Numbered from the stretch's first letter, positions 1 through 42,368 are shown. The stretch is DNA of 64,000 nt from Candidatus Enterousia sp. (GCA_045114635.1 JBGUKY010000021.1:6100-70099), one strand, 5' to 3'. Notes: generated by a model not told the origin, from the letters alone. Translations and numbers: made by a program.

Positions 1-2803
1 CTTGTTTACATAAAGCAGCAGCACTATCAAGCGATGCTTTCGCATCTTGTAATTTTGCCTTTGCAGATTCAAGAGAATCTCCACCCTCGCTTTCTGCTGC
101 TGTGTTAATACTGATATCATTTATCATTTCAGCATAATTTATACAAGAAGATTTCTTTTGTTTTGCAGATGAAGAGGCACCGTTCGCAACATTTGATTTA
201 TTTAACCATTTGCCCAAAACGCCGGATTCTGTCAAACCTGTACCAATTGCACCGCCACCCAAAAGACCGGCAACCGCGCCCCATGCATATTTAGATTTTG
301 TAGATGAAGAATTCACCAAATTACCATTTGAATCACGTACTTTAAGTCCAGCATCAACCAAAGCTTGTTCGCCAACCTTTTCTGTGATTTTTTGTAATGT
401 TTTATCGTCTATCCAAGAACCACATGTGAATGCATCACCAACCGCGAAATACGCTGTTGCTTTATCACCCAAAACTTCTTGGATTGCACGATCGTCTGAT
501 GTGACTGTGATACGTGCACGACAGAACGAACCATACAAATCATTAGATGCTTTGAATTGTTTTGTGGTCAAACCTTTCATATTATAATTCTTCGGGATCT
601 TGTTAGAATTCAATTTTACCCACATGAATGTTGAACCATTTTCAGCAGCACCCATAATACCACCGTTGTTTTGAGCCAAGCACATACCTTGTTCTTTTGT
701 AAGTTTAGCATTGTATTTTGCCTGGGCTTCTTTTTCAACATCAGCCAACAATTCTTGGAACAAAGATGTTCCGGCATTATCTAATTTATAATCAGCTATG
801 TTTTGATATACAGGTGTATCATATACACATCCGTTTTCGTCCATTATACCAATACATTGACCTTCGTCACTTGGTTCTTCTTGGATTCCAGCAGGACAAT
901 CATCACTTGGATTTGATACTGTACATGCAATCAAAACTTTATCAGGATTTTCAACAAGAGTTGCTGTTGTTGAATTTGCATCTCTCCATGCGCTTCTGAC
1001 AGAAGTGTTTGCACCCCAAGAATCTGTATCTGTTGTTAATTTATTAATAGCAATCTTTAAATGTTCATTACATACAGATGAATCTTTAACAGTATTCAAG
1101 CACAAACCGATAACAATATTGTAATCAAGAACGCCACCCATTTTATTCATACTGTTATCAAATTTTGCCTGGCCAGTACTATATGTTCCAGACATAACAT
1201 CTGTTCTGTTACGATAGCAACTTTCATAATCTTTACCACACATAGATTTTACACAAGACAATGCAACTGTTTGACATTGTTTACGCATATTTTCAATTGC
1301 GGCATCATTATAAGATGTTGCCAATGTTGCATTCAAAGATGCGATTACACCAATTGGATCCGCAGATACGCTTGAATCTTCTGGATAAAGTGTTGTGAAA
1401 ACACTGTTTTCATCATTCATATATCCAGCAAACAAACTACCCTGACTTAAAACTGCTGCATATTGGCAGTTCGCATCTGTATCTACAATAGCACGACAAG
1501 CAGATCTTACTTCTTTATAAGATTTAGGTGCCTTGGTAATATTGACTTCACCTGTGGAAGCATCACGAGATTGCGAATAACAAACAGATCCGATACCACC
1601 ACCGCAAGAACGCATAGCACAAGATGAAATTGTATCAATACACTTATCTTGAACCTTGGCATCAAATTTATCTGTTATTTGATTTATTTTATCTTTCAAT
1701 GCAGTAAAACGTCCAAATTCACCATTGTACATATCATCGAACACTTCACTTACATTATCAGGATCTGTCAAAACAGATTCTTTTGTAACCGGTTTTGCCT
1801 TTACAGTCATATAACAATATCTGTTTGAACCGATTGTTTGCTGGCATTCTTGACGGATATAGTTCGCAACTTCGCGTTTTGTTGTGATTTGAGAAATTTC
1901 CATTAAATCTTGTGCTGTCACAGCACGACCACCATTAGTTGCATCAGCAATTCTTATCAAGATTTCAGGACGATCTTCAATACATTTGTTTGGATTTTTC
2001 GAACAAGCATTCAAAATACATTGATCTGTAACCTTGTTACATGTAGCAACAGCATTATTTACAGCCAACGCAGCGCCTTCTGTAATCATTTCAGACAATC
2101 TTGAACCGCTTGCAGGTTGTAAAGACGACGCAGCAGCTGTTGATCCGAACAATTCTGTTTTTCCAGCAACTTGACAACGTGCTAATGTTGAATCACAAGA
2201 CAAAGCTTGTTTTTTGAATTCTTTTGGATCTGTACACAATTCAAAATCTTGGCCACAGATACTTTCTTTGTGTAAACAGGATGTGTATTTTTTAACACAT
2301 TGGTCTGTATCCAAACGATTTTCAATTTGAGCCGCTGTTATCATCTGCCCCAAAACACTGCTTGCTGTTGGGTATGTATATGCAGTGATTTCGCCATTTG
2401 AATCTGTTGTTGCAGATGTTGCAATTGCGTTCAAATCATACGACCCAAACAAAGAGGCACGACCAGCGTTGCTACATTGTGACAAAACATTCAAACATGT
2501 TGGCGTTTTAGCGTGTAACAATATTGTGTTTGTACATTCTTCAAATTCAGAACCGCAAGCATCATTACCCTTGATACAAGCCGAATAGTTATCGATACAA
2601 TCAACGTCTGCCAAATATGTTGTGGAAGTTCCGTTAATAACCGAAGACGTTGTACCGCCTGTGACCGAAGTAATATATCCGGCAATTGACGGTAAACGCG
2701 GCGTTGCCTTTGCCACCATGCTTACGCGTGATGTAGCCGCCATTGCCCCTGGAATCACGGCAAAAATTGACAATAAACCTAATGCTTTGACGATGTTCTT
2801 CAT
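1..2803 (-). CDS. Very large cysteine-rich tandem-repeat secreted/surface protein, partial (>930 aa; C-terminus lies beyond the window start).
   Basis: I read the reverse strand by hand from an ATG at 2803-2801: MKNIVKALGLLSIFAVIPGAMAATS..., a typical Sec signal peptide. The frame stays open to position 1. No competing ORF >100 aa exists on either strand across 1000-2400 in the supplied track, which appears to omit ORFs that run off the window edge. Internal ~50 aa repeats are visible: CIDNYSACIKGNDACGSEFEECTN...CLNVLSQCSNAGRASLFG versus CVKKYTSCLHKESICGQDFELCTD...CDSTLARCQVAGKTELFG. Near the C-terminal end there is a glycine-zipper hydrophobic segment, AWGAVAGLLGGGAIGTGL. The track ORF 2634..2816(-) is a different frame overlapping this start. 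Confidence 0.6.
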   Translation of the reverse strand, partial: MKNIVKALGLLSIFAVIPGAMAATSRVSMVAKATPRLPSIAGYITSVTGGTTSSVINGTSTTYLADVDCIDNYSACIKGNDACGSEFEECTNTILLHAKTPTCLNVLSQCSNAGRASLFGSYDLNAIATSATTDSNGEITAYTYPTASSVLGQMITAAQIENRLDTDQCVKKYTSCLHKESICGQDFELCTDPKEFKKQALSCDSTLARCQVAGKTELFGSTAAASSLQPASGSRLSEMITEGAALAVNNAVATCNKVTDQCILNACSKNPNKCIEDRPEILIRIADATNGGRAVTAQDLMEISQITTKREVANYIRQECQQTIGSNRYCYMTVKAKPVTKESVLTDPDNVSEVFDDMYNGEFGRFTALKDKINQITDKFDAKVQDKCIDTISSCAMRSCGGGIGSVCYSQSRDASTGEVNITKAPKSYKEVRSACRAIVDTDANCQYAAVLSQGSLFAGYMNDENSVFTTLYPEDSSVSADPIGVIASLNATLATSYNDAAIENMRKQCQTVALSCVKSMCGKDYESCYRNRTDVMSGTYSTGQAKFDNSMNKMGGVLDYNIVIGLCLNTVKDSSVCNEHLKIAINKLTTDTDSWGANTSVRSAWRDANSTTATLVENPDKVLIACTVSNPSDDCPAGIQEEPSDEGQCIGIMDENGCVYDTPVYQNIADYKLDNAGTSLFQELLADVEKEAQAKYNAKLTKEQGMCLAQNNGGIMGAAENGSTFMWVKLNSNKIPKNYNMKGLTTKQFKASNDLYGSFCRARITVTSDDRAIQEVLGDKATAYFAVGDAFTCGSWIDDKTLQKITEKVGEQALVDAGLKVRDSNGNLVNSSSTKSKYAWGAVAGLLGGGAIGTGLTESGVLGKWLNKSNVANGASSSAKQKKSSCINYAEMINDISINTAAESEGGDSLESAKAKLQDAKASLDSAAALCKQ

Positions 2804-2889
2804 CCCCTTTCTCCATTTTACTTTGTATTTATTCTATCATAACAAGCAAAATAATGAAAGCGAAAAATGAAGCGTTTTGTGATTATTTT

Positions 2890-3849
2890 TTATTGGTTAT
2901 CAAGAATTTCTTTCAATTCAATCATATCATCTGGCATATGTGCTTTAAAGTGCATTTTTTCACCGGTTATTGGGTGCATAAACTCCAAGATTTCAGCATG
3001 TAACATTTGACCGTTATGTTCGCGCAAAAAATCAAGCAATTCTGGGTCTTTTACGGATCCAATATGCCCCTTTTCACGACCATAAAGTGGGTCACATAAA
3101 ACAGGGAATCCATGTGACGACAAATGAACCCTTATTTGATGGGTTCGTCCGGTCATAAGAGTACAACGAAACATCGAAATACCTGGGCGGGTCCAAACAT
3201 CCATAACATTGACAATTGTATGTGCTGGTTTGCCACCCGTTTTTACCAATGACATTTTTTGTCTATTTCGTGATGAACGAGCAATATTTCCAGTTATTTC
3301 AGCCCCACCCCAAGTTGGAACACCCCAAACAAAAGCAACATATTTACGGGTTAAATCGTGCGCAGAAAAAATCTTTACAAGTCCGCGATATGCGGCATCG
3401 CTTTTCGCAAAAACCATCGCACCACTTGTGTCTTTATCAAGACGATGAACGACCCCGGGCCTTGTTTGGCCACCCAACGCAGACAAATGGGTATAAGCCA
3501 ACAGGTTTTGAACCAATGTCCCTGTTTTATTTCCAGCACTTGGGTACATAACAACACCGCGTGGCTTGTTAATCACAATAATATCATCGTCTTCGTATAA
3601 AATTTCCAAATCAAAATCACTGCTGATATTATCATATGCCACATCAGTCTTTTTTTCAGCAATTTCTACAACAAATTCGTCATTTAATTTTGTTTTTTCA
3701 GACAATTTTAATGGGCGACCGTCAGTGCGATCTATTTTGAATTTTTGAATTTCACTGCGCGAATATTCAGGCATAGAGATTGACAAAAACTTATCAATTC
3801 TTATTCCCACATTTTCTTCATTAACCAAAAATTTTTTGATATCAGCCAT
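2890..3849 (-). CDS. rluD: 23S rRNA pseudouridine synthase, RluA family (RluD-like) with N-terminal S4 domain.
   Basis: Catalytic motif HRLDKDTSGAMVFAK; S4-like N-terminus (IRIDKFLS); 319 aa, the typical RluD size. Confidence 0.75.
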   Translation of the reverse strand: MADIKKFLVNEENVGIRIDKFLSISMPEYSRSEIQKFKIDRTDGRPLKLSEKTKLNDEFVVEIAEKKTDVAYDNISSDFDLEILYEDDDIIVINKPRGVVMYPSAGNKTGTLVQNLLAYTHLSALGGQTRPGVVHRLDKDTSGAMVFAKSDAAYRGLVKIFSAHDLTRKYVAFVWGVPTWGGAEITGNIARSSRNRQKMSLVKTGGKPAHTIVNVMDVWTRPGISMFRCTLMTGRTHQIRVHLSSHGFPVLCDPLYGREKGHIGSVKDPELLDFLREHNGQMLHAEILEFMHPITGEKMHFKAHMPDDMIELKEILDNQ

Positions 3850-4331
3850 TATCTATATTCTGTCCATTTTGGACCTTGTTCACACTTTGAAATATCAATC
3901 GTAAAGTTACGTTTTCCTTCTACTGGACAAGTCAAAATCCCGGTCGAACGAGCCTGGGTTGCATCTTCTGTTGCATTACGCCACGCAAAAGAAATTGTGT
4001 CTGGTTTATAAACACAGACTATACGTAAATGTCCTGACATTTTTCCATTTGGTGACAACCATACACGAACACTGTCTGATTCGCCATAACAAGGAAAAGA
4101 ATCAAGGTAATATAATACCAGACCTTCTTTAACAAGAGATTTATCTGTCCCCTTGATTGTTCCGGTATATTGGTTAAGTTGCAACCCTGTTACCGCAGCC
4201 CAATCAACAGTCGTTGAAAACACGCTTACGCGTTGAACTGGTGCCGGTGCTGGTGGTGGCGGCGTTGACTGTGTATCTGCAAATGCAGCAACACAAAACA
4301 AAGATAAAAATATTATGAAAATATTCTTCAT
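3849..4331 (-). CDS. Small secreted protein with a Pro-rich linker (hypothetical).
   Basis: Signal peptide MKNIFIIFLSLFCVAAFA followed by TPPPPAPAP and a Cys-containing beta-rich region. Start codon overlaps the rluD stop and the ZitP-like gene end, so it looks co-transcribed. Confidence 0.45.
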   Translation of the reverse strand: MKNIFIIFLSLFCVAAFADTQSTPPPPAPAPVQRVSVFSTTVDWAAVTGLQLNQYTGTIKGTDKSLVKEGLVLYYLDSFPCYGESDSVRVWLSPNGKMSGHLRIVCVYKPDTISFAWRNATEDATQARSTGILTCPVEGKRNFTIDISKCEQGPKWTEYR

Positions 4332-4837
4332 TTCGATTCCTTTAATTCAACAGACAATCTTTTAACATTTGTCGGATCAACTGATAACATATGGTTAAAT
4401 GTAACTGTTGTTTTTGATTCAAGCAATGTTGCCGGTGGCATAAAAGTTTGTCGGGACAAAACATTACCCATCGCATCATAGGAAATAATTATTATATTTG
4501 GCAAACCATATATTTCATCTGTTGTATTGGTGATATTACCAGATACAAATATACGATTGTTTCCATTTTCATCCAATACAGTATGTATATTTTTCTCATC
4601 TATCTTTGTAATCAAAGGTTGGCTTTTTTTCATACCAGAAAAATTCATGACAACCACAAAAGAAAATATACAAGCTGCGATAAAAGCACAAACCGCCGCA
4701 ATAAATTTTATCATTGTTTTGTGCTGAAACGGAACCCGTGGTGTCCAAACATGCCCACACACAGCGCACTTCACAGGTGTCGTTGGTGCATGTTCTAAAT
4801 TGTATTCTGTTTTACAAAAATTACATACTATCTTCAT
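4328..4837 (-). CDS. ZitP-like protein: N-terminal MJ0042-type zinc-ribbon, one TM helix, C-terminal DUF3426-like domain.
   Basis: N-terminus MKIVCNFCKTEYNLEHAPTTPVKCAVCGHVW (CxxC...CxxC zinc ribbon). Then TM segment FIAAVCAFIAACIFSFVVV and a ~100 aa beta-rich C-terminal domain. This architecture matches Caulobacter ZitP and its alphaproteobacterial homologues, which control polar pilus biogenesis. Confidence 0.55.
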   Translation of the reverse strand: MKIVCNFCKTEYNLEHAPTTPVKCAVCGHVWTPRVPFQHKTMIKFIAAVCAFIAACIFSFVVVMNFSGMKKSQPLITKIDEKNIHTVLDENGNNRIFVSGNITNTTDEIYGLPNIIIISYDAMGNVLSRQTFMPPATLLESKTTVTFNHMLSVDPTNVKRLSVELKESK

Positions 4838-4874
4838 AAATGAACTCCGTATGATATTTTTATACCATAAATTA

Positions 4875-6203
4875 TTATAAATTCAACATTTCATATTTAG
4901 CACGTATTTGTGTCTGCATATTATTTATCGCATTTATATAATCAGCAACTGTCGCATTCACATTGGCAGAAACCCCACCAAATATTGTTGTCGCAACAGT
5001 TCCTTGATTTGATTCTTGTGCCATTATAATTGAAGCCATACGTGAAAGTTCTGGGGAATTTATATCAACAAAACGTGCCTTACTGTTTTTAATATCCCAA
5101 TAATAAGAGGAATCTTTTGAATCTTGAATTTTATCTGAAATATGTAGTTGTGGTGTCACAGACCCAGTATAACCAACAGATACATATGTCGCATTTATAC
5201 TACCTAAAATTAAATCCATGTCACCTATAATTTTTAACGAAGAAGATTTTCCAGAAGTGTTTGAAACACTAAAACCACTTAAAGTTAAAGTGTTTACATA
5301 CAAATCATTTGTAGAAAAAGAAGAAAATTTTGCCGAATCTGCCAAAGTCAATGTTCCATTGACATTCAGATTCCGAGAATCCGCAGTTAAAGCACCGTTT
5401 ACAACGGCTATATTTGTTGAATATACCGCATCTATGGTTGAACGATTTGCAAAAACTAATGTGGATACATCCAATTTGCCGATTTTTAATTTTTCTTCAA
5501 ATTGTGCTTTATATGCATCTACAAAGCGAATATTTTTTATATCATGTCCATCTAAATTCAAGGCTGATTGCATTGTCGCATCGTCTTCATTTTCTGACGG
5601 CAGTCTCCATAAATATTCTGTATTACCACGTTTTATATTTGTCGTTCCAACCAAACCTTTGGTGTTTGACAAACCAAAATCAGCCGCCGAAGAACGAAAG
5701 GCCCCAAAACCACCGTATGTCACATTACCTTCAACGAAACCAAATTTGCCACCACCCAAGTTAACTATTTCACGTGTACGCATTGGGGATATATCACTAT
5801 TTGTCAAAAGCACTATACCTTGTAACACAGAATTATTTTTATTATCCGAAGATTTCAAAACACGCAGCTGATAATCATCACCATATGTATCAGCAATATA
5901 TTCTGGCAACCCATAATTTATTAAATCATTGATTTTAATATGGGTTATGTTTTTACCCTTTGGACGCATCAGTTCAGTTTTATTTTCAACAATATATCTT
6001 TCAAGTGCATTTTGAACCCTTTCCATTTGTTTTGTTATCGCAACATTTCTTGCACGCAAAACTGCGGTTTGTTGATATCTGAAAACAAACGGTATAATTA
6101 TTGCAGCCAGCGCAACGGTCATCATCAATTCAACAAGCATTCCACCGCGTTGCATATTTTTACGAAAAAGATTCAGTGTTCTCGTCATTATTTCGTATGC
6201 CAA
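4875..6203 (-). CDS. Large type IV pilin-like / pseudopilin-like protein with a class-III signal peptide.
   Basis: MQRGG|MLVELMMTVALAAIIIPFVF: Gly, then a hydrophobic helix with Glu close to +5. The true start may be the internal Met at ~6155, giving a short MQRGG leader like those of the neighbouring genes. Rest of the 442 aa protein is beta-rich and Ser/Thr/Asn-rich. Confidence 0.5.
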   Translation of the reverse strand: MAYEIMTRTLNLFRKNMQRGGMLVELMMTVALAAIIIPFVFRYQQTAVLRARNVAITKQMERVQNALERYIVENKTELMRPKGKNITHIKINDLINYGLPEYIADTYGDDYQLRVLKSSDNKNNSVLQGIVLLTNSDISPMRTREIVNLGGGKFGFVEGNVTYGGFGAFRSSAADFGLSNTKGLVGTTNIKRGNTEYLWRLPSENEDDATMQSALNLDGHDIKNIRFVDAYKAQFEEKLKIGKLDVSTLVFANRSTIDAVYSTNIAVVNGALTADSRNLNVNGTLTLADSAKFSSFSTNDLYVNTLTLSGFSVSNTSGKSSSLKIIGDMDLILGSINATYVSVGYTGSVTPQLHISDKIQDSKDSSYYWDIKNSKARFVDINSPELSRMASIIMAQESNQGTVATTIFGGVSANVNATVADYINAINNMQTQIRAKYEMLNL

Positions 6204-7393
6204 TTTTGTTTTATTATTTTGTTAAATTCATCGGCATCTGGAACTGGTGGAACAGATGCGCGTGTCAAAGTCAATTTTGAAAAAGAAGGTGGTGTCAAAG
6301 AAGGAAACGACCAATTACCTATTTTCAAAGGTGCAACGCCTGCCAACAATAATTCACCAGAAACAGTTATGCCAAAGTTTTCAAAAAACACTAAATCTGT
6401 TGCCGATAAATATGGCGTCAAAAGTTTATTCATAGATATACCACTAAAACCAGAAACACTTCTACCACTTGAAGATTTCAAAATTAAATTACCAGCAACA
6501 TTGACAGAGTTTCCAATTGTTGCTCTATCCACTATCAGTTTACCGTTTGTTGTATATTTATCGTCGTTTAACACTTTCGCTTTGATAAGTCTAAAACCAC
6601 TTGTATCACCCGTCACACGCATAGAAGAAAATGTTATGCTTTCTGAATTCATGTTTGCCCCAGAAGAAAAATATACATTGTTTGCATCAACAACATCTGA
6701 TTCAAGAAACACTGCATCAACATCTATAATTTTAGCAGACAAACCATCAACTTTGGCCGCATTAAATACATTAAAATTATTCATATGTAAGTCACGATTC
6801 ATTTGATTCAAAGCATCTTCGCCCATTGTGCCACGATGCAAGAACCTTGATTTATCTGCCCCTTCAAAATCATGCGATACTCTGAAAATTAAATCACCAA
6901 CATTAAAATCTTCTGGTGCAGACACAGCCCAACTTTGTGAATAGGCGATACCGTCTTCACGTACAACCGCAGCATCTTCACCAATTTGTTTTGCGATATT
7001 TGCCGCTCTGTAATCAGATTTTCCCATATCAAAAGCCAAATAAACATCGCTTATGGACGCACCGTTTACTTTATATCTGTCAATATACCCACTATGAGCA
7101 TCAGCAGATATTTTCTTTAAATCTTCATCAGATAATTTTATTTCTGTTGTATCTTTCCATTGACCTTGATTTACACGAATATAATTTACAACAACATCTC
7201 GTATTTTTACTATTTCATTTGCATGCGCGATATCTTCTGATTCATTAGACATTTCTATAATTTGATTGTACATAAAAGGCGATATAGCAATCACAACAGC
7301 CACAGCCAAAATAACTTCGGTCAATGTTGCACCGTATTGCGAAAACGCGTTTAATCTTTCAAAATATTTTTTACATACAATCACTGCGCCCAC
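6188..7393 (-). CDS. Large type IV pilin-like / pseudopilin-like protein with a class-III signal peptide (long leader).
   Basis: ...FSQYG|ATLTEVILAVAVVIAISPF: Gly, Glu at +5, ~20 aa hydrophobic helix. 401 aa. Overlaps its neighbours, consistent with an operon. Confidence 0.5.
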   Translation of the reverse strand: MGAVIVCKKYFERLNAFSQYGATLTEVILAVAVVIAISPFMYNQIIEMSNESEDIAHANEIVKIRDVVVNYIRVNQGQWKDTTEIKLSDEDLKKISADAHSGYIDRYKVNGASISDVYLAFDMGKSDYRAANIAKQIGEDAAVVREDGIAYSQSWAVSAPEDFNVGDLIFRVSHDFEGADKSRFLHRGTMGEDALNQMNRDLHMNNFNVFNAAKVDGLSAKIIDVDAVFLESDVVDANNVYFSSGANMNSESITFSSMRVTGDTSGFRLIKAKVLNDDKYTTNGKLIVDRATIGNSVNVAGNLILKSSSGRSVSGFSGISMNKLLTPYLSATDLVFFENFGITVSGELLLAGVAPLKIGNWSFPSLTPPSFSKLTLTRASVPPVPDADEFNKIIKQNWHTK

Positions 7394-8723
7394 TCTCTAA
7401 ACATTGTTTTATATTTATTCTTGATTCCAATCTTTGCCAAAAAACATATTGGCATATTATATTTTGTGCCAAGGATTTACTATTATAAGCGACATCCATT
7501 TGATTGATTATATCTTTACAAGAAACTTTTTTGCCTGTTGTATCTTTTGGGTCTGCAATAATTTCAAAAGAATCATTATTTATTCCGTCAACATAAGCAT
7601 CCGGCAAAAGTGTTGTTCCTGCAGGTCTTATATCAATCAATAATGGTCCAGATTGACCATCTAATAATCCATACGAAGTTTGATCACGCAACGATATATT
7701 TGCAGCATATATATTTTTTACATCAACACCTTTTTTGGTGGTATAGGTTAGGCTTTCCGGATCAATATAAACATCTTGTCCACGCGACGCATCCAAAAAA
7801 GAACCGATATCTAATCTATCAACATTAAAACTAAAATTATCAGCACGTACAGCGCCACGAACCAGCCAATCAGAAGGCCCATCAAACCCCGTTCTGCCTT
7901 CGGACATAGAAAAGTCATATACAGACGCAACCTCAGATTCAAACCCACCTGTCGTTCCAAATCTGGAAATAGTACGCAAAGATGCAGACGATGTATTTAT
8001 TTCACCACGCGAAAGAGACAAAGCAGCACCACCATCAGCGCTTTGAAACACCGTTTTATTCGCGTACAAATCTGAAATTTTGTTTTTATCTTTTCTACTT
8101 TCTTCTACACCATAAAGCGACAAAGTAGTAAATTGCGCACTTTCAAATTCACCATTACGCGCAAACAAAACACCTATCTTGTCCACACTTTTTTCATTCA
8201 TATCAAGTTCAGACAAAAAACCGACATTTTCACCTGTTTCTTTTTTTGAAACTATATCGCTGTACATTTCATCAAGCGGTATATCAACTTCGATATTGCT
8301 TCCATTGATCTTTGCATAAAAACCTATTCTTCGCGCCAATTCTGCAAGTTGTATTTTCGACAATTTTCCACTTGTAACATTTATAAAACCGTAAAGCCCG
8401 TCTTCACTTTTGTTGATAATCAAAGATATGTTTTGGTTAAAATGTGTTCTTGGACTAAACCCAAGTGGCAATCCATAATTTTCTAATACTTCTACAAAAT
8501 CTTCTTTGCTCAACTCTTGTTTTTTATACGGCAAATTTTCTTTTTCTTCACGCAAATAAATACGTGCAGCCGATTGTGCCATTTCAATTTGTTCTGTAAC
8601 GGCATACATTTGGGCAGCCATGTCGCGTGATGAAATACGCCGCGCAAAAAAAGGCATAAAAGCAAAAACCAATGTCAATGCTAATAACGCTTGTAACAAA
8701 AAATTACCTGTCTGTTTTTGCAA
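7371..8723 (-). CDS. Large pseudopilin-like protein (GspK/PilX-like: prepilin-type N-terminus but no Glu+5).
   Basis: MQKQTG|NFLLQALLALTLVFAFMPFF, then a 450 aa beta-rich protein with four Cys near the C-terminus. First gene of the minus-strand operon. Confidence 0.4.
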   Translation of the reverse strand: MQKQTGNFLLQALLALTLVFAFMPFFARRISSRDMAAQMYAVTEQIEMAQSAARIYLREEKENLPYKKQELSKEDFVEVLENYGLPLGFSPRTHFNQNISLIINKSEDGLYGFINVTSGKLSKIQLAELARRIGFYAKINGSNIEVDIPLDEMYSDIVSKKETGENVGFLSELDMNEKSVDKIGVLFARNGEFESAQFTTLSLYGVEESRKDKNKISDLYANKTVFQSADGGAALSLSRGEINTSSASLRTISRFGTTGGFESEVASVYDFSMSEGRTGFDGPSDWLVRGAVRADNFSFNVDRLDIGSFLDASRGQDVYIDPESLTYTTKKGVDVKNIYAANISLRDQTSYGLLDGQSGPLLIDIRPAGTTLLPDAYVDGINNDSFEIIADPKDTTGKKVSCKDIINQMDVAYNSKSLAQNIICQYVFWQRLESRINIKQCLESGRSDCM

Positions 8724-9231: not shown

Positions 9232-10785
9232 ATGCTTTCCCCTAAAGGAAGCACTATGGATACTAATTATACGGTTTTAGCACGAAAATACAGAAGTCAG
9301 GACTTTGAATCTCTTATTGGTCAAGACGTTTTAGTCAAAACATTAACCACCGCTATTAATACTGGTCGTATTGCACATGCGTACATTTTTACGGGTATTC
9401 GTGGAACTGGAAAAACCAGTACTGCGCGTATTTTAGCCAAGGCATTAAACTGTTTATCTTCTGATCACGCAACAGCAAAACCATGTGGTGTTTGCGAAAA
9501 CTGTCGCGCTATTGCAGCCGGACAACACATTGATGTTATGGAAATTGACGCTGCTTCCCATACAGGTGTTGATAATATGCGTGAAATATTGGACGCAGCA
9601 CTTTACCGTCCAACAAATGCGCGTTACAAAGTTTATATTATCGACGAAGTTCATATGTTATCCACCAGCGCTTTTAACGCGTTGCTTAAAACATTGGAAG
9701 AACCACCTGCACACGTAATATTTATTTTAGCAACAACAGAAATAAGAAAAGTTCCTGTGACCATATTATCACGTTGCCAACGTTTTGATTTGGCACGTGT
9801 ACCTGTTGAAACATTAAAGAAACATTTCGCATGGGTTGCAGAACAAGAAAAGATTGAATTATCAGATGGCGCAAATGAATTATTGGCACGTGCTGCCGAT
9901 GGCTCTGTTCGTGACGGACTTTCACTTCTTGATCAAGCCATCGCTCAAACAGGTGGTCATGTTGATGAAGGCGCTGTTCTTGATATGTTAAAAAGAACAG
10001 ATCGTGGCACAGTTGTTAATTTTATGAAAATTGTTTTATCTGGTGATGTTAATGCTGCATTAAATAAATTAGATGAAATATATAACAATGGCGCAGATTT
10101 GACTATGTTGTTAAATGACATGATGGAATGGACGCATTGGGCAACACGCATGTATCCATCGCTTCGCTTACAAGATGTAACATCTTCACCATATACAGCA
10201 GATCAACGTGAAACCATTCGCAAAATTAACGAAAACATTTCACTTAATACACTTTCACGTATTTGGCAGGTTATGGTTGCATCTGTTTCTGAATTACAGG
10301 CATCTGGTAATCAAAAACAATGTTTTGATATGCTGATTGTTCGTTTGATGCATATTGCAGACATGCCATCAATTCCTGAATTATTAAAACAAGATCAACC
10401 TGCACCGGCAAAAGCAGAGGCAAAACCAGCACCAGAAAAATCAAAAGCCGCGAAAATAAGTACTTCTGACGAATTGGCGACCGCTTTACAAAAAGATCGC
10501 GAATTGTTGTTATATTCTTACTACACAACAAATCTTGAAATAACAGAATTTGAAAATGGAAAAATAAAATATTTTGATCGCAAAGGCGACAAAGATTTTT
10601 CAAACAAACTGGCTTTGTGGTTAAAAGAAAAAACCGGTAAAAATTGGAACCTTGAATTGATTCAAGAAGCACCACACCAACAAACATTGTCAGAACACAC
10701 AAAATCTGAAATTGAATCTGATCCAATGGTGGCAAGTGCAATGGACTTATTCGAAGGCGCAGAAATTGTGAACATATCTAAATAA
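9232..10785 (+). CDS. dnaX: DNA polymerase III subunit gamma/tau.
   Basis: AAA+ Walker A GIRGTGKTS; zinc module CGVCENC; sensor motifs; 517 aa. Confidence 0.92.
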   Translation: MLSPKGSTMDTNYTVLARKYRSQDFESLIGQDVLVKTLTTAINTGRIAHAYIFTGIRGTGKTSTARILAKALNCLSSDHATAKPCGVCENCRAIAAGQHIDVMEIDAASHTGVDNMREILDAALYRPTNARYKVYIIDEVHMLSTSAFNALLKTLEEPPAHVIFILATTEIRKVPVTILSRCQRFDLARVPVETLKKHFAWVAEQEKIELSDGANELLARAADGSVRDGLSLLDQAIAQTGGHVDEGAVLDMLKRTDRGTVVNFMKIVLSGDVNAALNKLDEIYNNGADLTMLLNDMMEWTHWATRMYPSLRLQDVTSSPYTADQRETIRKINENISLNTLSRIWQVMVASVSELQASGNQKQCFDMLIVRLMHIADMPSIPELLKQDQPAPAKAEAKPAPEKSKAAKISTSDELATALQKDRELLLYSYYTTNLEITEFENGKIKYFDRKGDKDFSNKLALWLKEKTGKNWNLELIQEAPHQQTLSEHTKSEIESDPMVASAMDLFEGAEIVNISK

Positions 10786-10801
10786 TCAGGGGGACAAAAA
10801 A

Positions 10802-11257
10802 ATGAGGGAACAATCAGGACGTTCATTGATAGAAATTATCGGCGTACTTGCTATTGGCGCAATTATGGTTTCTGGAACTTATGCGATATATAATTCTACA
10901 AATGCAAAACAAAAAAGATTGATCGCATCAAGTGAATTGGAAAACATTGCAACAAAAACAAAAACACTTCTGGAATATTCTGGTTATATACCTGTATCTG
11001 TTGATTTCTTGATTGAATCTGGCGCGCTATCCAGCGACAAAGCCCCAGCAGGAAGTCAAGATTGGTCGATCACAAGTAATTTTGATGGTACAGAATTTTC
11101 AATCAATTTATCTGGGTTGAGTTTTGATGAATGTGCATATTTCACAACAAAAAAATTTGATTGGACAACACATATAAGCGTTAATGGGTATGACACAAAG
11201 GAAACATCATATTGTCTTAAAACAGGTGACAACAAAATATCATTTTTTGCTAAATAA
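10802..11257 (+). CDS. Type IVa pilin-like protein (prepilin).
   Basis: MREQSG|RSLIEIIGVLAIGAIMVSG: textbook class-III signal with Glu+5. C-terminal Cys pair (ECAYF...SYC) typical of the disulfide-bonded D-region. RBS AGGGGGAC 6 nt after the dnaX stop and no terminator between them. Confidence 0.65.
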   Translation: MREQSGRSLIEIIGVLAIGAIMVSGTYAIYNSTNAKQKRLIASSELENIATKTKTLLEYSGYIPVSVDFLIESGALSSDKAPAGSQDWSITSNFDGTEFSINLSGLSFDECAYFTTKKFDWTTHISVNGYDTKETSYCLKTGDNKISFFAK

Positions 11258-11260
11258 AAT

Positions 11261-11935
11261 ATGAAATTATTAAATTTTGTTTTTGTCAGTTTATGTTTGT
11301 CTGGGTGTTTACAATACCACAGCCCATCACACGACATGTGGAACAAATATCTATACGGCGCAAGTTTTACAGATATGACAGAAACATCACGCACTGCTAA
11401 AATGCCTGTGTATATGGGACGTGGTGGCAAGATTATAACACAAACAGGTGAATTATCTGAAAAAATGCAATATGGTGACAAAAACGCGATAGATAATACA
11501 GTATTGATAAATTATATGGCTAATCTGGAATACGAATTATACGATGCATTGCGCAAACCAGGTCTTTCTGTTCAGCGGGCAGGTACAGATGTTGTTGTAA
11601 TTTTGGTACGCGACAGTATTATGGATCAATCTGTCGCAGACATATCAAGTGACGGCGCAGATACACTTAAAACAATTTCAAAAATATTAAATAAATACAA
11701 TGCAACATTTATGGAAATTGCAGGATATACGGATTCTATGAAAAACAAAAACGCATCATACGCATTATCTTTGGACATGGCAGAACGTGTCGGTGTATAT
11801 TTTTCACAACACAACATTTCAACATCACGTATGTTCATCGTGGGACGTGGCGCGGCACGACCAATTGCTGCCCAAGATGACATTGGCCGTTTAACAAACC
11901 GTCGTGTTGAAATAAGATTGACTCCGGCACGATAA
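11261..11935 (+). CDS. OmpA/MotB-family lipoprotein.
   Basis: Lipobox LSGC at the N-terminus. C-terminal OmpA-like peptidoglycan-binding domain (IAGYTDS...NASYALSLDMAERV...RRVEIRL). Starts 4 nt after the pilin-like gene. Confidence 0.65.
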   Translation: MKLLNFVFVSLCLSGCLQYHSPSHDMWNKYLYGASFTDMTETSRTAKMPVYMGRGGKIITQTGELSEKMQYGDKNAIDNTVLINYMANLEYELYDALRKPGLSVQRAGTDVVVILVRDSIMDQSVADISSDGADTLKTISKILNKYNATFMEIAGYTDSMKNKNASYALSLDMAERVGVYFSQHNISTSRMFIVGRGAARPIAAQDDIGRLTNRRVEIRLTPAR

Positions 11936-22688: not shown

Positions 22689-22712
22689 AAAACCGCTGAA
22701 ACGGCGGTTTTT
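22689..22712. terminator. Bidirectional intrinsic terminator.
   Basis: ACCGCTGAAACGGCGGT hairpin with flanking A-run and T-run. Confidence 0.5.
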
Positions 22713-24744
22713 AATACAGTACACAAGATTGGCCCAATCCATCATCGTGTAGGCTAGCAGATACATTAGGTAAAACTTTATGTACAGATCTCCCCATATG
22801 ACTACATAAATCTAAATCCATACCAACACAAGCTTGTCTTGAACTGCCAACACGTTTTGTTTTACCGCCATACATATTGCAAATTGTATCTATTATTGAA
22901 GAAAAATTTGTTTTTTCTGTTAAAGAATCAAAATGAAAAATGTATTTTCTGCCATCAGTATCTTTACAAGACAAATAATCATCCAGCTTTTTTGTTATAA
23001 AACCATCATCACAATATAAATTTAAATTGTTTTTTTCTGCATATAAACCAATAAGTTTTTTACCTTTGTCTAGATCAGCTTTTGTTTCGCTAAAATCTGG
23101 CACATCTTTATCTGGTCCGACACATTTGTTATTTTTCCACTCCAAATCGCCAATACAATTACATTTCATGCCTTTGCCATCCCAATTATACGCGTTCTTT
23201 TTAACATGTATCTCCAAACAACATGCTTTACCTGCTTCGGTTTTAAACTGTGATGAACAATAACCCTCTGGATTGCTGCTTATTTTATCATCTGTCCATT
23301 GTATTGGTTCGGAAGCATTTTGAAGGCCAGATGTTGTTTCTGTCTTTGCAGAACAAGTAAATGTTTTTTCATTCAATACTGGTTTATCACTTGGACATTC
23401 ACAGATTGTATTTGTTTCATTTTTTACAAGATTACCCTTACATTCTGTCACTTTACATTTATTGCCTTCGACAATCCCATCTTTTGCTTTTAATTTATTC
23501 AATGTAGCAACTTTACATTTTTTTTGGCTTGCTACACCATCATCATCAAGATCTTCGCATTTGTGGGTTTTCCTGTTTTCAACTTTATCTGGGCCACAAT
23601 CACAAACAGTTCCACGCCATGTACCACCACTTTCAGGACTTTCACATGCTGCTTTGAATTTATTTATTTGATCTGCTGTATCTTTTGTACAAACCACATC
23701 TGAATCTAAACCTTTGGAAGCGATCGAATAATTTTTACCATTTAATGTTGTGTGGAAACCAGATTTACATTCTTGGATAAAACATTCCATTGTTCCGCCT
23801 TCGGCTTCTAAATAAACAGCTTTGACGGCATTATTTTGTTTTAAAAATTCAGAACCACACGGATCTTGTTCGGTGCTAGTTTTTGCACGTTTTTCTTTGC
23901 TTTTATCTACCACAGGGGCTGTTGATACAACTTTTTTGTTTTTACCTGGTTCGGTTGTTATAGCGTTTCCTTCTACTTCATCTTCATCGGATTCATCAGC
24001 TATACATTGTTTAGAATCAGGCGTGTAAAAACCATTGTTACATTCATTTATCAAACATTGTACTATTGTTTTTTCTGTATAATCTTCTGGTATAACTTTT
24101 TTTGTTGCCTCTTCTTCAGAAACAGAGGTTATTGTTTTATACGTTTCCCAATTTGTTGTCGCCCAAGCGCCACCGAATTTTGTAGTTTTTATATTGTCTG
24201 ATTTCTTGTTATCATCGTGTCCCTTGCAATTTGTCATAAACTTAATCACAGCATCTGCAAATTGTGAACGCAAAGACGGTGGTAATTCTTCTGGTTCATA
24301 TCCACGTGTAATAACACTATCGCCAGGATTTCCAGCCAAACCATTTATTCTTGCTATATCTTGTGTGGCAATAATTGTTAATGTATGTGTTCTATTGTAT
24401 TCGGCCACCCTTGCCGCTTCTGCAGCTTCTTCTTCAGCTTTTTGTTGTTTTTTTCTGTTATATTCTTTTTCTTTGTCCTGAAGAGTCGTATTTTGTTTTT
24501 CTATTGTTTTAGTATTATCTTTGATTATTTTTGCTTCTGCTATATTTCCAGCAACACCAACAGCAGTTAATCCAAGTGTCGATATTCCGGCAATCTGAAG
24601 TCCCTTATTGGTTCCCATACATTTTTCTAGTTCTTCTATTTTGCGCTGCTTTTCACGCACCAATTGGGTGTAACGCGCAGACGAACCAAAACATATACTT
24701 GGGGTCACTAGCAATAACAAAAAAGACATAAAATATTTTTTCAT
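22711..24744 (-). CDS. Cysteine-rich repeat secreted/surface protein carrying an N-terminal Cys+glycine-zipper module.
   Basis: Signal peptide, then EKCMGTNKGLQIAGISTLGLTAVGVAGNIAEAK, then many Cys-bounded repeats (INECNNGFYTPD / IQECKSGFHTT / CKVTECKGN...). 677 aa. Confidence 0.55.
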   Translation of the reverse strand: MKKYFMSFLLLLVTPSICFGSSARYTQLVREKQRKIEELEKCMGTNKGLQIAGISTLGLTAVGVAGNIAEAKIIKDNTKTIEKQNTTLQDKEKEYNRKKQQKAEEEAAEAARVAEYNRTHTLTIIATQDIARINGLAGNPGDSVITRGYEPEELPPSLRSQFADAVIKFMTNCKGHDDNKKSDNIKTTKFGGAWATTNWETYKTITSVSEEEATKKVIPEDYTEKTIVQCLINECNNGFYTPDSKQCIADESDEDEVEGNAITTEPGKNKKVVSTAPVVDKSKEKRAKTSTEQDPCGSEFLKQNNAVKAVYLEAEGGTMECFIQECKSGFHTTLNGKNYSIASKGLDSDVVCTKDTADQINKFKAACESPESGGTWRGTVCDCGPDKVENRKTHKCEDLDDDGVASQKKCKVATLNKLKAKDGIVEGNKCKVTECKGNLVKNETNTICECPSDKPVLNEKTFTCSAKTETTSGLQNASEPIQWTDDKISSNPEGYCSSQFKTEAGKACCLEIHVKKNAYNWDGKGMKCNCIGDLEWKNNKCVGPDKDVPDFSETKADLDKGKKLIGLYAEKNNLNLYCDDGFITKKLDDYLSCKDTDGRKYIFHFDSLTEKTNFSSIIDTICNMYGGKTKRVGSSRQACVGMDLDLCSHMGRSVHKVLPNVSASLHDDGLGQSCVLY

Positions 24745-25112
24745 TATTCGTTACCTATGTTTTCTATTTTTTTATCCCAAGATTTGAGTTGTTCTTTGTT
24801 TGAAGAAATAGTATCTTTTTGTTCCTTGATTTTTACCCCCTGAACACCAGCAGCAATACCTGTTGATACAACACCAGCCGAACCAATAACAGTTGCAGCA
24901 ACCCAGCCTTTTTTCTGTTTTTCACATTTAGCAATTTCTTCGTCCAATATAGCAATATCATTTTCAAGTATAGCAATAGCTTCTTCTTCATTTAATTCTG
25001 CTTCCATTTCTGCTGCATATTTTTCAGCGGTATGATTTTTTGTCTTTACCGCAGCATCTGCATTGAAAGCACCAAAAGCAATCATCAGAACAAATATAAA
25101 TATATTTTTCAC
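24744..25112 (-). CDS. Small secreted protein with a Cys+glycine-zipper module, paralogous to the N-terminus of the upstream 677 aa gene.
   Basis: Signal peptide MKNIFIFVLMIAFGAFNADA; AKCEKQKKGWVAATVIGSAGVVSTGIAAGVQGVK aligns with the 677 aa protein's module; coiled-coil flanks. Confidence 0.45.
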   Translation of the reverse strand: MKNIFIFVLMIAFGAFNADAAVKTKNHTAEKYAAEMEAELNEEEAIAILENDIAILDEEIAKCEKQKKGWVAATVIGSAGVVSTGIAAGVQGVKIKEQKDTISSNKEQLKSWDKKIENIGNE

Positions 25113-40740: not shown

Positions 40741-41205
40741 ATTCTTTTTCTTTCTGAACTCGTCCAAAGAAACAACCCTTTTATCATCTGGAACAGTATC
40801 TGGTTTTTCTTCCAACGGCAACTCTGGTGTTTCTGTTGTTTGTTCTGCCGCTTTTTGACGCGGATGAAACGATAACATAAACTCTGTAGATGGGTCTTTG
40901 AATTCAACCAATGCAGAAAAAGGAACACGTATAAAGAATGGACGGCCATCAAAAGTCAATTGCACACCAAACTCTTTATCAGACACATTCAAATTATTAT
41001 ATGAATATTGTAAAACAATAGTCATTGTATCAGGATATCTGATTCTTAAAAAATCGGGCAAAACAACACCGGGCGCACGTGTTTTGAATGTGATAAAAAA
41101 TCCTGCATCGTCGCCCAAACCATTGTATTGCGCATAAATAAGTGCTTCTTTGACAACGGATTTTAATGCGTTATCTAATAACTGTTGATAATCTATCTTA
41201 TGCAT
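40735..41205 (-). CDS. SspB-like ClpXP adaptor (alphaproteobacterial type).
   Basis: The pattern P.VVL...TMTIVLQYSYNNLNV.D..F.V.L.F.GRP..I.VPF.AL tracks the SspB fold. Flexible acidic/Pro-rich linker and a basic C-terminal tail (EFRKKKNL). Confidence 0.4.
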   Translation of the reverse strand: MHKIDYQQLLDNALKSVVKEALIYAQYNGLGDDAGFFITFKTRAPGVVLPDFLRIRYPDTMTIVLQYSYNNLNVSDKEFGVQLTFDGRPFFIRVPFSALVEFKDPSTEFMLSFHPRQKAAEQTTETPELPLEEKPDTVPDDKRVVSLDEFRKKKNL

Positions 41206-42287
41206 CTTTTTTCTCCGCTATAACTATATTACTTATTTCGCCATTAACGCAAGTAACAAATAAAGCATCTGGGATATCTTTGAATATATTTATTGAAACA
41301 CCTGTTGCCCAAACCTGAGCATCAGATTCATTCAAATCAGCAAATAACTTTGTACGCGCATTTTCGTCCAAATGTGCGGCTGCTTCATCTAATAAAATTA
41401 TTGGTTTTGCGCCTGTTTTAACGTGTATTAATTTTGCATGCGCCAATATTAAATCAATCAATATAGATTTTTGTTGACCAGTAGATGTTATTTGTGCTGG
41501 CAAATTTAATTTTTTATTGAATACGCCAAAATCAGATTTGTGAACCCCATCTATGACCATTTTGTCACCAATCAATTCACGATTATTTTGTAGATATTCG
41601 AAATACTTTGTTTCTGCTGCTGCTGCAGTATTTTCTAACACTAATTTTTCAACACTACCATCAACAGATACAGCACCTGTTTCAAAGAAATAATTTATTT
41701 CTGATGCATATCTTATACGACCAGCCGCCACAGATATAGATGTTGCCGCAATTTGTTTATCAATAGCATCCAACCAATTATTATCAGCACCGCTTTTTAT
41801 TGCGCCAGCGCGTTCGGACATCAATTTATTAAGTCGTGCAATTCTTCCCATATGCGAAGGTTCAAAACTTGCCGCCAATCTATCAAAAAAAGCCCGACGA
41901 TCAGCAGATGATTCCATAAAAATACGGTCTTCTTTTGGGGTCAACCAAACAATTCGCAATTTTTTAGAAAGTTCTGACAGAGCTACATTTTCATTATCTA
42001 TTTTCGCATGACGATTCGTATCACCAGGATTTAAAAACACACATACATCACTTTCATCACACGTTGTCGCAAAAACAGAAAATCCACCATCGCCATTGAA
42101 ACGCGCCATTGTTTGAATTTCTGCACCACGAATACCACGTTCACCACAAAGCAAAGACAATGCCTCTAAAACAGCAGTTTTCCCTGCGCCATTATCGCCT
42201 GTGATAATGATATTTTTTACATCACCGATATTGATTCGTGAACAAGTATGATTTCTGAAATTAGTAAGAGTAATTTGACTTATCATT
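41198..42287 (-). CDS. recF: DNA replication and repair protein RecF.
   Basis: Walker A GDNGAGKTAVLEA; ABC-type signature; start taken at MISQITLTNFRNH. Confidence 0.85.
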
Positions 42288-42294
42288 TTCAATG

Positions 42295-42368
42295 TGGAGG
42301 CCAGGGTCGGAATCGAACCGGCATCCAAGGATTTGCAGTCCTCTGCATAACCACTCTGCCACCTGGCC
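42295..42368 (-). tRNA. tRNA-Cys (anticodon GCA).
   Basis: Folded by hand: acceptor GGCCAGG/CCTGGCC, 3-bp D-stem, anticodon loop CTGCAAA, T-loop TTCGATT, CCA encoded; 74 nt. Confidence 0.8.

Follow-up and report, generated by a model that had tools for sequence, protein, structure and literature searches.

Conjugative plasmids and enteric pathogens are the main sources from which PilV proteins, the members of the Shufflon_N family (PF04917), are known, the best comparison for the present work being PilV of IncI1/R64 and of the type IVb thin pilus of Salmonella Typhi. Two other type IVb minor pilins that start the assembly of the pilus and are located at its tip, TcpB of Vibrio cholerae and CofB of enterotoxigenic Escherichia coli, are each encoded by a single gene and act as homo-oligomers. 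In the type II secretion and the type IVa minor-pilin complexes, the first-assembled subunit lacks the glutamate at position +5 of the mature protein (Glu5). Finally, in Caulobacter crescentus a zinc-ribbon protein, ZitP (CC_2215), which regulates PopZ and the formation of polar pili, serves the Tad/Cpa (type IVc) pilus. Here, we have analysed a stretch of 64,000 nucleotides (nt) from Candidatus Enterousia sp. (GCA_045114635.1, JBGUKY010000021.1:6100-70099), which we refer to as the window. It encodes three consecutive prepilin-like proteins of 400-450 amino acids (aa), P1, P2 and P3, and, further down the same packed row, a ZitP-like protein (Table 1). As judged from profile comparisons, P1-P3 are remote chromosomal relatives of PilV, i. 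e. kin at the level of the superfamily that score below the Pfam cut-off rather than members as defined by Pfam. We consider it probable that they are ancient PilV/Shufflon_N paralogues that function as tip or minor pilins of a type IVb-like filament with a PilS-like major subunit.

The host belongs to Candidatus Enterousia, in the uncultured alphaproteobacterial order Rs-D84. Genomes of this order comprise 0.67-1.6 Mb and lack most biosynthetic pathways, including those for nucleotides, and a dependence on other cells has been proposed (PMC12306168). A first-pass annotation of the window, made by a model from the sequence alone, had already considered an alphaproteobacterium with a reduced genome, and a scan of the GTDB species genomes with P1 agrees with this: The protein was present in 166 genomes, and 80 loci were kept for comparison. 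These are mostly metagenome-assembled genomes titled Candidatus Enterousia, uncultured Alphaproteobacteria or proteobacterium, or 'Rickettsiales bacterium', and they originate from rumen, faeces and termite gut, the last as judged from the isolate names. The conservation counts given below refer to 75-81 orthologous sequences per protein from about 80 species, which are 45-55% identical overall to the window proteins.

All three proteins begin with a prepilin-type (class III) signal, as the first-pass annotation had proposed, and the residues that define this signal are conserved. The glycine at position -1 is present in every orthologue (80/80 for P1, 78/78 for P2, 75/75 for P3). The predicted pattern of two proteins with and one without Glu at position +5 holds as well: this position is occupied by Gln in all 80 P1 sequences, by Glu in 77 of the 78 P2 sequences, the remaining one having Asp, and by Glu in 73 of the 75 P3 sequences, with Asp in the other two. 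The absence of Glu5 is a familiar exception among first-assembled minor subunits. P1 has a leader of 6 aa (MQKQTG), followed by NFLLQALLA with Gln at +5. The P2 site (...SQYG/ATLTE) is preceded by a leader of 18-21 aa, depending on which of two GTG codons is used as the start. For P3, cleavage had been placed at GG/MLVE; the invariant glycine gives QRG/GMLVE instead (...MQRG/GMLVE, leader of about 15 aa). The residue at +1 is Asn or Ser in P1, Ala or Ser in P2 and Gly or Ser in P3, and it is never Phe; a residue other than Phe at this position and long leaders are traits of type IVb pilins. When all six frames of the window were scanned for G-x4-[EDQ] and a subsequent hydrophobic segment free of charges, P1, P2 and P3 alone were retrieved. 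The N_methyl family is matched by 9 out of 50 P2 orthologues (best 5.7e-4).

Three lines of evidence link the trio to PilV. First, a HMMER search with the P3 profile against 1.84 billion representative sequences yielded 210 clusters at E<0.001; some of the proteins in these clusters match the Shufflon_N model of Pfam with values between 1e-25 and 1e-67, and one of them carries the NCBI name 'shufflon system plasmid conjugative transfer pilus tip adhesin PilV'. Second, hhalign aligned P3 with a set of PilV proteins at 99.6% (E 1.9e-23) over 250 columns (P3 16-274, PilV 10-273), and the corresponding values are 98.3% for P2 and 96.4% for P1. Finally, we used the PilV protein of a complete type IVb cluster (L084), which consists of genes for a secretin, PilO, a T2SSE ATPase, a T2SSF platform protein, three PilS proteins, a second ATPase and two Shufflon_N proteins: In tblastn against the window and the 80 loci, this PilV found the P3 genes in 68 loci (best 8.9e-13). 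The Shufflon_N model itself is matched weakly by 2 of 49 P3 and 3 of 50 P2 orthologues. The first-pass annotation had seen here an undescribed type IV filament with proteins far bigger than ordinary minor pilins; the profile searches, hhalign and tblastn place them among the remote members of a known superfamily, and the PilV/Shufflon_N tip adhesins of type IVb pili are of equal size. An N-terminal PilV-like module of about 230 residues is also present on other members of the family with 500-1100 aa. Several proteins with about 900-1140 aa (P0339, P0346, P0348, P0354, P0355 and others) have in common a near-identical prepilin-like start (...QKGSMMVEALAMLGLITMVTPVLYKKAAERTTELQDIN), the module of about 230 residues and a C-terminal extension of about 700-900 aa; no Pfam match was found in P0339, P0355 and P0386, the three that were scanned, and the contigs are short (L089).

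The fold of the N-terminal region is in line with this kinship. AlphaFold models were generated for P1 and P3, the input for P3 being 121 homologues at 70-94% identity. In the P1 model, confidence is good for residues 1-150 (block means 53-95, mostly >70), and these form a helix (7-59) that is packed on a beta-sheet. According to this model, the N-terminal part of P1 has the fold of a pilin, with a long N-terminal helix on an antiparallel beta-sheet. Since P1, P2 and P3 are paralogous over their first 200-250 residues, with hhalign values of 91.5-98.4% (98.4% for P2-P3, 91.5% for P2-P1), this assignment holds for P2 and P3 as well. Moreover, a PDB search with a P3 profile from 49 species gave two matches to PilA-N of Geobacter (E 0.0023 and 0.0069), aligned from the leader through alpha1. 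A homologue search with concatenated P1, P2 and P3 of a divergent species gave no match. As to the C-terminal parts, the domain of P1 contains four conserved cysteines (402, 424, 441, 449). These parts had been described as beta-rich and rich in Ser, Thr and Asn. The enrichment is moderate, the three residues together accounting for 22-28%, and the description as beta-rich rests on models of low confidence.

A candidate for a major filament subunit, absent from the first-pass annotation, is encoded about 2 kb from the trio: a type IV pilin of 151 aa that resembles PilS and TcpA. Both Gly(-1) and Glu at +5 are present in 75 out of 75 orthologues, and two cysteines (111, 138) are invariant. Among the orthologues, 38 of 42 match N_methyl and 21 of 42 the PilS N-terminal model, and the window copy scores 17.4 bits against the N-terminal methylation model (cut-off 21.2). 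Searching the PDB with its profile gave PilA-N (E 0.002) and, across 113 residues, the type IVb pilin TcpA (E 0.008). The pilin gene appears to be co-transcribed with dnaX, the gene for the tau/gamma subunits of DNA polymerase III: it follows dnaX after 17 nt, its stop codon is separated by 4 nt from the gene of an OmpA-family lipoprotein, and this unusual row of three genes is kept in 74 of the 80 loci. Whether the lipoprotein is part of the pilin system is uncertain. In a single locus, L002, dnaX and the genes beyond it are located about 2.1 kb further from the trio (DUF4167 at about 9848, dnaX at about 7331), which suggests an insertion between the DUF4167 gene and dnaX.

The block of genes is in conserved synteny throughout the 80 loci. 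Every sufficiently long locus has the order Skp, OmpA lipoprotein, 151-aa pilin, DnaX, DUF4167 and then, in divergent orientation, P1, P2, P3, the zinc-ribbon protein, the secreted protein Sec160 and RluD. Searches for homologues gave 935 sequences for P1 and 914 for P3, nearly all of them unnamed; some databases call the P3 homologues 'type II secretion system protein'. More distant uncultured lineages have retained the order P1-P2-P3. In one of these, locus L082, the trio (444/461/487 aa, with Gln at +5 in the first protein) is followed by four genes on the opposite strand and then by genes for a zinc-ribbon protein of 242 aa, a Sec160 homologue and RluD. In L083, the trio (487/423/544 aa) adjoins rimP-nusA-infB and is followed by recO, and scoring with hidden Markov models gave best matches in the order P1, P2, P3. 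L087 and L088 have three tandem genes each, with the P3 orthologue at the last position. The conserved order of such diverged paralogues argues for distinct, non-redundant roles. In comparisons with three close relatives, the ratio of nonsynonymous to synonymous substitution rates (dN/dS) ranges from 0.05 to 0.12 in P1-P3 and from 0.09 to 0.11 in the pilin, as compared to 0.05-0.06 for rluD and dnaX. The trio is under strong purifying selection.

The bitopic protein of 169 aa that is encoded after the trio is composed of a CxxC...CxxC zinc ribbon (residues 1-32), a transmembrane helix (about 43-66) and a domain of the DUF3426/FxLYD type (95-164). Its proposed resemblance to ZitP holds at the level of the family: All 44 orthologues analysed match Zn_ribbon_4 and 27 of the 44 match DUF3426 (PF11906, best 1.5e-6), no exchange is seen at C5, C8, C24 and C27, and W31 is nearly invariant. 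The window copy itself scores 26.7 bits with Zn_ribbon_4, remains under the curated zinc-ribbon cut-offs (26.7 vs 30.3; 15.8 vs 20.9), and matches the NCBIfam model FxLYD_dom (28.3 bits, cut-off 23) instead of DUF3426, for which it gave no match to PF11906. With the family profile, the zinc ribbon of AgmX (E 0.002) and entry 2nb9 (its sequence begins MILTCPECASRYF; E 0.016) were found in the PDB, the latter with Trp aligned to Trp. We take 2nb9 to be the zinc ribbon of ZitP, an entry code that is not confirmed in the text of the corresponding paper. Thus, the three-part architecture, the four zinc-binding cysteines and the equivalent of W35 are shared with ZitP, AgmX having Ile at the position of the tryptophan. 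In ZitP, Trp35 is required for the binding of PopZ, and the DUF3426 domain is needed for the biogenesis of polar pili (PMC5182065). A ZitP-like architecture is therefore supported at the level of sequence. There are also differences: The protein has 169 rather than 245 aa, with a much shorter linker, and the basic patch of ZitP (K18, R24, R27, R34) is not fully conserved: R24 falls into a deletion of four residues, R34 is replaced by Val, and R27 is aligned with Lys. Moreover, the pilus served by ZitP is not of type IVb.

Several observations weigh against the idea that P1-P3 are the tip proteins of a filament. None of the three window proteins reaches the threshold of any Pfam or NCBIfam model, including PF07963 and TIGR02532, and there is no pilin match at E<1. 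The P3 model is poor, with a predicted local distance difference test score (pLDDT) of 51, and in the P1 model residues 377-450 are confident and 152-376 have low confidence. A Foldseek search of the PDB with the P1 model retrieved nothing at E<0.1 and no pilins, and the P2 profile found no pilin among the PDB sequences. The missing family matches and the results with Foldseek and the P2 profile might mean that P1-P3 are ordinary signal-anchor proteins with plain transmembrane helices, the likeness to prepilins reflecting hydrophobic composition. We regard this as very improbable: the profile searches, in which such anchors might have come to light, recovered PilV, and this retrieval together with hhalign and tblastn largely refutes the idea. 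The blank result with Foldseek is probably due to about 225 disordered residues in the model and to the deposited pilin structures, in most of which, as we assume, the helix is truncated at its N-terminal end.

The same side of the balance holds the points that concern the context of the genes. Conservation is even along P1-P3, with no hypervariable C-terminus, unlike what is seen in a diversifying adhesin. The trio does not always have the ZitP-like gene as its neighbour: four genes are located in between in L082, and recO comes after the trio in L083. Given this variable neighbourhood, the link of the two is not obligatory. Most importantly, as had been stated on first pass for the window, family scans and tblastn found no assembly genes: Neither the window nor the flanks of about 10 kb of the 80 loci encode an ATPase, a platform protein, a prepilin peptidase or a secretin, and the machinery proteins of L084 gave no tblastn match in the window and the 80 loci. 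The absence of any assembly gene across about 75 kb of contiguous context is the main weakness of our interpretation; the search covered the window and the flanks of related loci rather than the rest of the genome, and the contigs L085, L087, L088 and L089 are too short to show machinery. In the one metabolic reconstruction that has been published for Rs-D84, type IV pili come up for a different lineage only (PMC12306168), and our literature search found no paper on pili in this order. The missing machinery, the lack of reported pili, the uniform conservation without a variable tip and the position among housekeeping genes in every lineage seen would all be expected if the filament machinery had been lost and the trio and the pilin persisted as membrane-anchored relics, i. 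e. as periplasmic envelope proteins that may be cut or uncut. To us this seems quite unlikely for two reasons. Gly(-1) and Glu5 serve only cleavage and filament registration, yet they are 97-100% kept in four proteins across about 80 species. Moreover, a reduced genome of 0.7-1 Mb should drop about 4.5 kb of useless genes, yet the dN/dS values of the trio are low.

A second possibility is that the genes encode a short pseudopilus similar to that of type II secretion, or a DNA-uptake machine, which would export the many large Cys-rich proteins secreted by these bacteria or import DNA as a source of nucleotides. The four pilin-like proteins would then build a periplasmic piston or a competence pilus instead of an adhesive pilus on the surface. 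One subunit without Glu5, as in GspK, the database name of some P3 homologues, the gene after rluD, whose product is secreted, rich in Cys and about 1000-1100 aa long, and the absence of nucleotide biosynthesis from Rs-D84 (PMC12306168) would suit such a machine. However, both sequence and fold point to PilV, PilS, TcpA/B and CofA/B and not to GspG-K or ComG, the Pfam and NCBIfam searches gave no match to T2SSK (GspK/PilX type), T2SSG or the like, and a length of 400-450 aa is what one typically finds in the minor pilins at type IVb tips. We therefore think that a pseudopilus is unlikely.

If P1-P3 are indeed type IVb-like tip or minor pilins, we suggest that the system works as follows. The three proteins would be made as prepilins with a basic leader that ends in the invariant glycine, and a prepilin peptidase would cut after this residue. 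Their hydrophobic alpha1-N helices would then allow P1-P3 to join in the inner membrane and to form a priming or tip complex, on which the PilS-like pilin of 151 aa would polymerise into the filament. By analogy with GspK, P1 may be the first and thus the outermost subunit, since in the absence of Glu5 no salt bridge to a preceding subunit is needed. The exposed tip would consist of the C-terminal halves, which are divergent but well conserved, and it plausibly attaches to another cell or surface or takes up material. A positioning role, like that of ZitP for the Caulobacter pilus, may fall to the co-transcribed ZitP-like protein. It is tempting to speculate further, and this more detailed picture is tentative, that P1-P3 form a heterotrimeric tip capped by P1, a counterpart with three genes to the homo-oligomeric tips of TcpB and CofB, and that this tip is carried by a type IVb-like filament for cell-cell attachment or uptake that is positioned by the ZitP-like protein and whose assembly genes are dispersed or very divergent.

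Table 1. Genes of the two neighbouring rows (coordinates in the window; a slash marks the predicted cleavage site)
Feature	Position	Strand	Length (aa)	Remarks
P1, PilV-superfamily prepilin-like	7371-8723	-	450	TTG start 6 nt past AGGAGG
P2, PilV-superfamily prepilin-like	6188-7393	-	401	GTG start at 7393 or 7384
P3, PilV-superfamily prepilin-like	4875-6188	-	437	Counted from ATG at 6188
ZitP-like zinc-ribbon/transmembrane/DUF3426-type protein	4328-4837	-	169	
Sec160, secreted protein, family unknown	3849-4331	-	160	Sec signal peptide
rluD-type 23S rRNA pseudouridine synthase	2890-3849	-		TIGR00005 240 bits, PF00849; last gene of the packed row
Row dnaX-pilin-lipoprotein	9232-11935	+		
PilS/TcpA-like type IV pilin	10802-11257	+	151	MREQSG/RSLIE
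OmpA-family peptidoglycan-binding lipoprotein	11261-11935	+	224	PF00691 1.8e-11, YiaD-like

The open reading frames of P1-P3 are large minus-strand genes as described on first pass, with overlaps of 23 nt between P1 and P2 and of 1 nt between P2 and P3. Overlaps are also found between the ZitP-like gene and the Sec160 gene (4 nt) and between the latter and rluD (1 nt). The genes do not all overlap, though, as a gap of 37 nt separates P3 from the ZitP-like gene. The longest reading frame of P3 begins at 6203 (442 aa); the ATG at 6188 is the likely start, because it overlaps the P2 stop codon (TAATG) and agrees with the database gene calls of 437 aa. A scan for promoters and terminators gave counts at chance level, with none usable within the operon. 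That a secreted protein and rluD complete the row was borne out by the reading frames and the family matches. Sec160, which is translationally coupled to both the ZitP-like gene and rluD, has the conserved core RVS(V/I)FST..DW..VTG...LYYLD.FPCYG; it is secreted as proposed, and its supposed richness in Pro is confined to a short, non-conserved linker after the signal peptide. The product of rluD is a housekeeping enzyme and its gene probably merely a co-transcribed neighbour. Directly downstream of rluD, a gene for a very large secreted Cys-rich protein (MKNIVKALGLLSIFAVIPGAMA...) starts in the window (1-2833, minus strand), where at least 944 aa are present before it leaves the window at position 1. 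The protein has 1098 aa in L001 (15920-19216) and 1011-1051 aa in other loci that were checked, and its position after rluD recurs in six loci examined.

The G+C content of the window is about 36%. Its other genes are housekeeping genes (nusA, infB, lptFGD, surA, pnp, parAB, mutS, macAB-tolC, accBC, mreB, metG, fabDG, mnmG, ileS, pheT), and four tRNAs were the only hits of an Rfam scan. The longest recF reading frame (TTG at 42328; region 41198-42368) coincides at its 5' end with part of the tRNA-Cys gene (42295-42368, minus strand), which implies that the true start of recF must be further downstream. Two adjoining secreted proteins of 677 and 122 aa (22711-25112, minus strand) have signal peptides and Glu/Lys-rich N-terminal segments and no Pfam match. 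The IleS protein of the window is identical to that of a Logan contig (L086, SRR25030098, 8.7 kb), thus indicating that the source organism or a very close strain was sampled there, as short contigs only; according to this contig, the right end of the window is followed by pheT, pheS, rplT and one more small gene. Finally, the chromosome OZ246409.1 (L066; 716,531 bp), labelled 'uncultured Muribaculaceae bacterium', carries the whole syntenic block of Rs-D84 with 47-74% protein identity. Its taxonomic label looks wrong, and the record possibly represents a closed chromosome of Rs-D84 that comprises just 716 kb.

Bacteria of the Rs-D84 order, including Candidatus Enterousia, are widespread in gut and rumen, and a life at the expense of other cells is suspected (PMC12306168). 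The strongly selected set of four pilin genes, one PilS-like and three PilV-like, is a concrete candidate for an attachment organelle of these bacteria, and it extends the PilV family to chromosomal housekeeping contexts in the Alphaproteobacteria. It also places a ZitP-like gene beside pilin genes outside Caulobacter. As in PilV, the trio proteins are of a size of about 400-475 aa, their prepilin leaders have G(-1) and E+5, they possess an N-terminal constant region of about 250 residues with the block YLWR...ATM.S.LNL.GHDI.N, and they are partnered with a PilS-type pilin. The identity to PilV is only 21-24%, and P1 has Gln5. Unlike PilV, the trio consists of three fixed paralogues in a conserved order and has no shufflon: between 3849 and 8900 there are only short AT-rich chance repeats and no sfx-like inverted repeats, and no recombinase of the Rci type is present among the reading frames of the window. 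Moreover, the genes are located on the chromosome among housekeeping genes, whereas that of PilV concludes a pilI-V cluster in which secretin, ATPase, platform protein and peptidase are encoded. TcpB and CofB are putative structural analogues for which sequence homology was not detected here, and the present system differs from them by its three paralogues. With GspK and PilX, the trio has in common that one subunit, P1, lacks Glu5 and that it forms a conserved multi-gene set of minor pilins. We have rejected the identification of P1 as GspK in the sense of membership, as there is no T2SSK match; of the comparison made on first pass, the missing Glu5 stands, as an analogy. Thus, the PilV/Shufflon_N family and its fold were already known; what is new is a host order with reduced genomes, the fixed form with three paralogues instead of a shufflon, the separation from the assembly machinery, and the ZitP-like neighbour.

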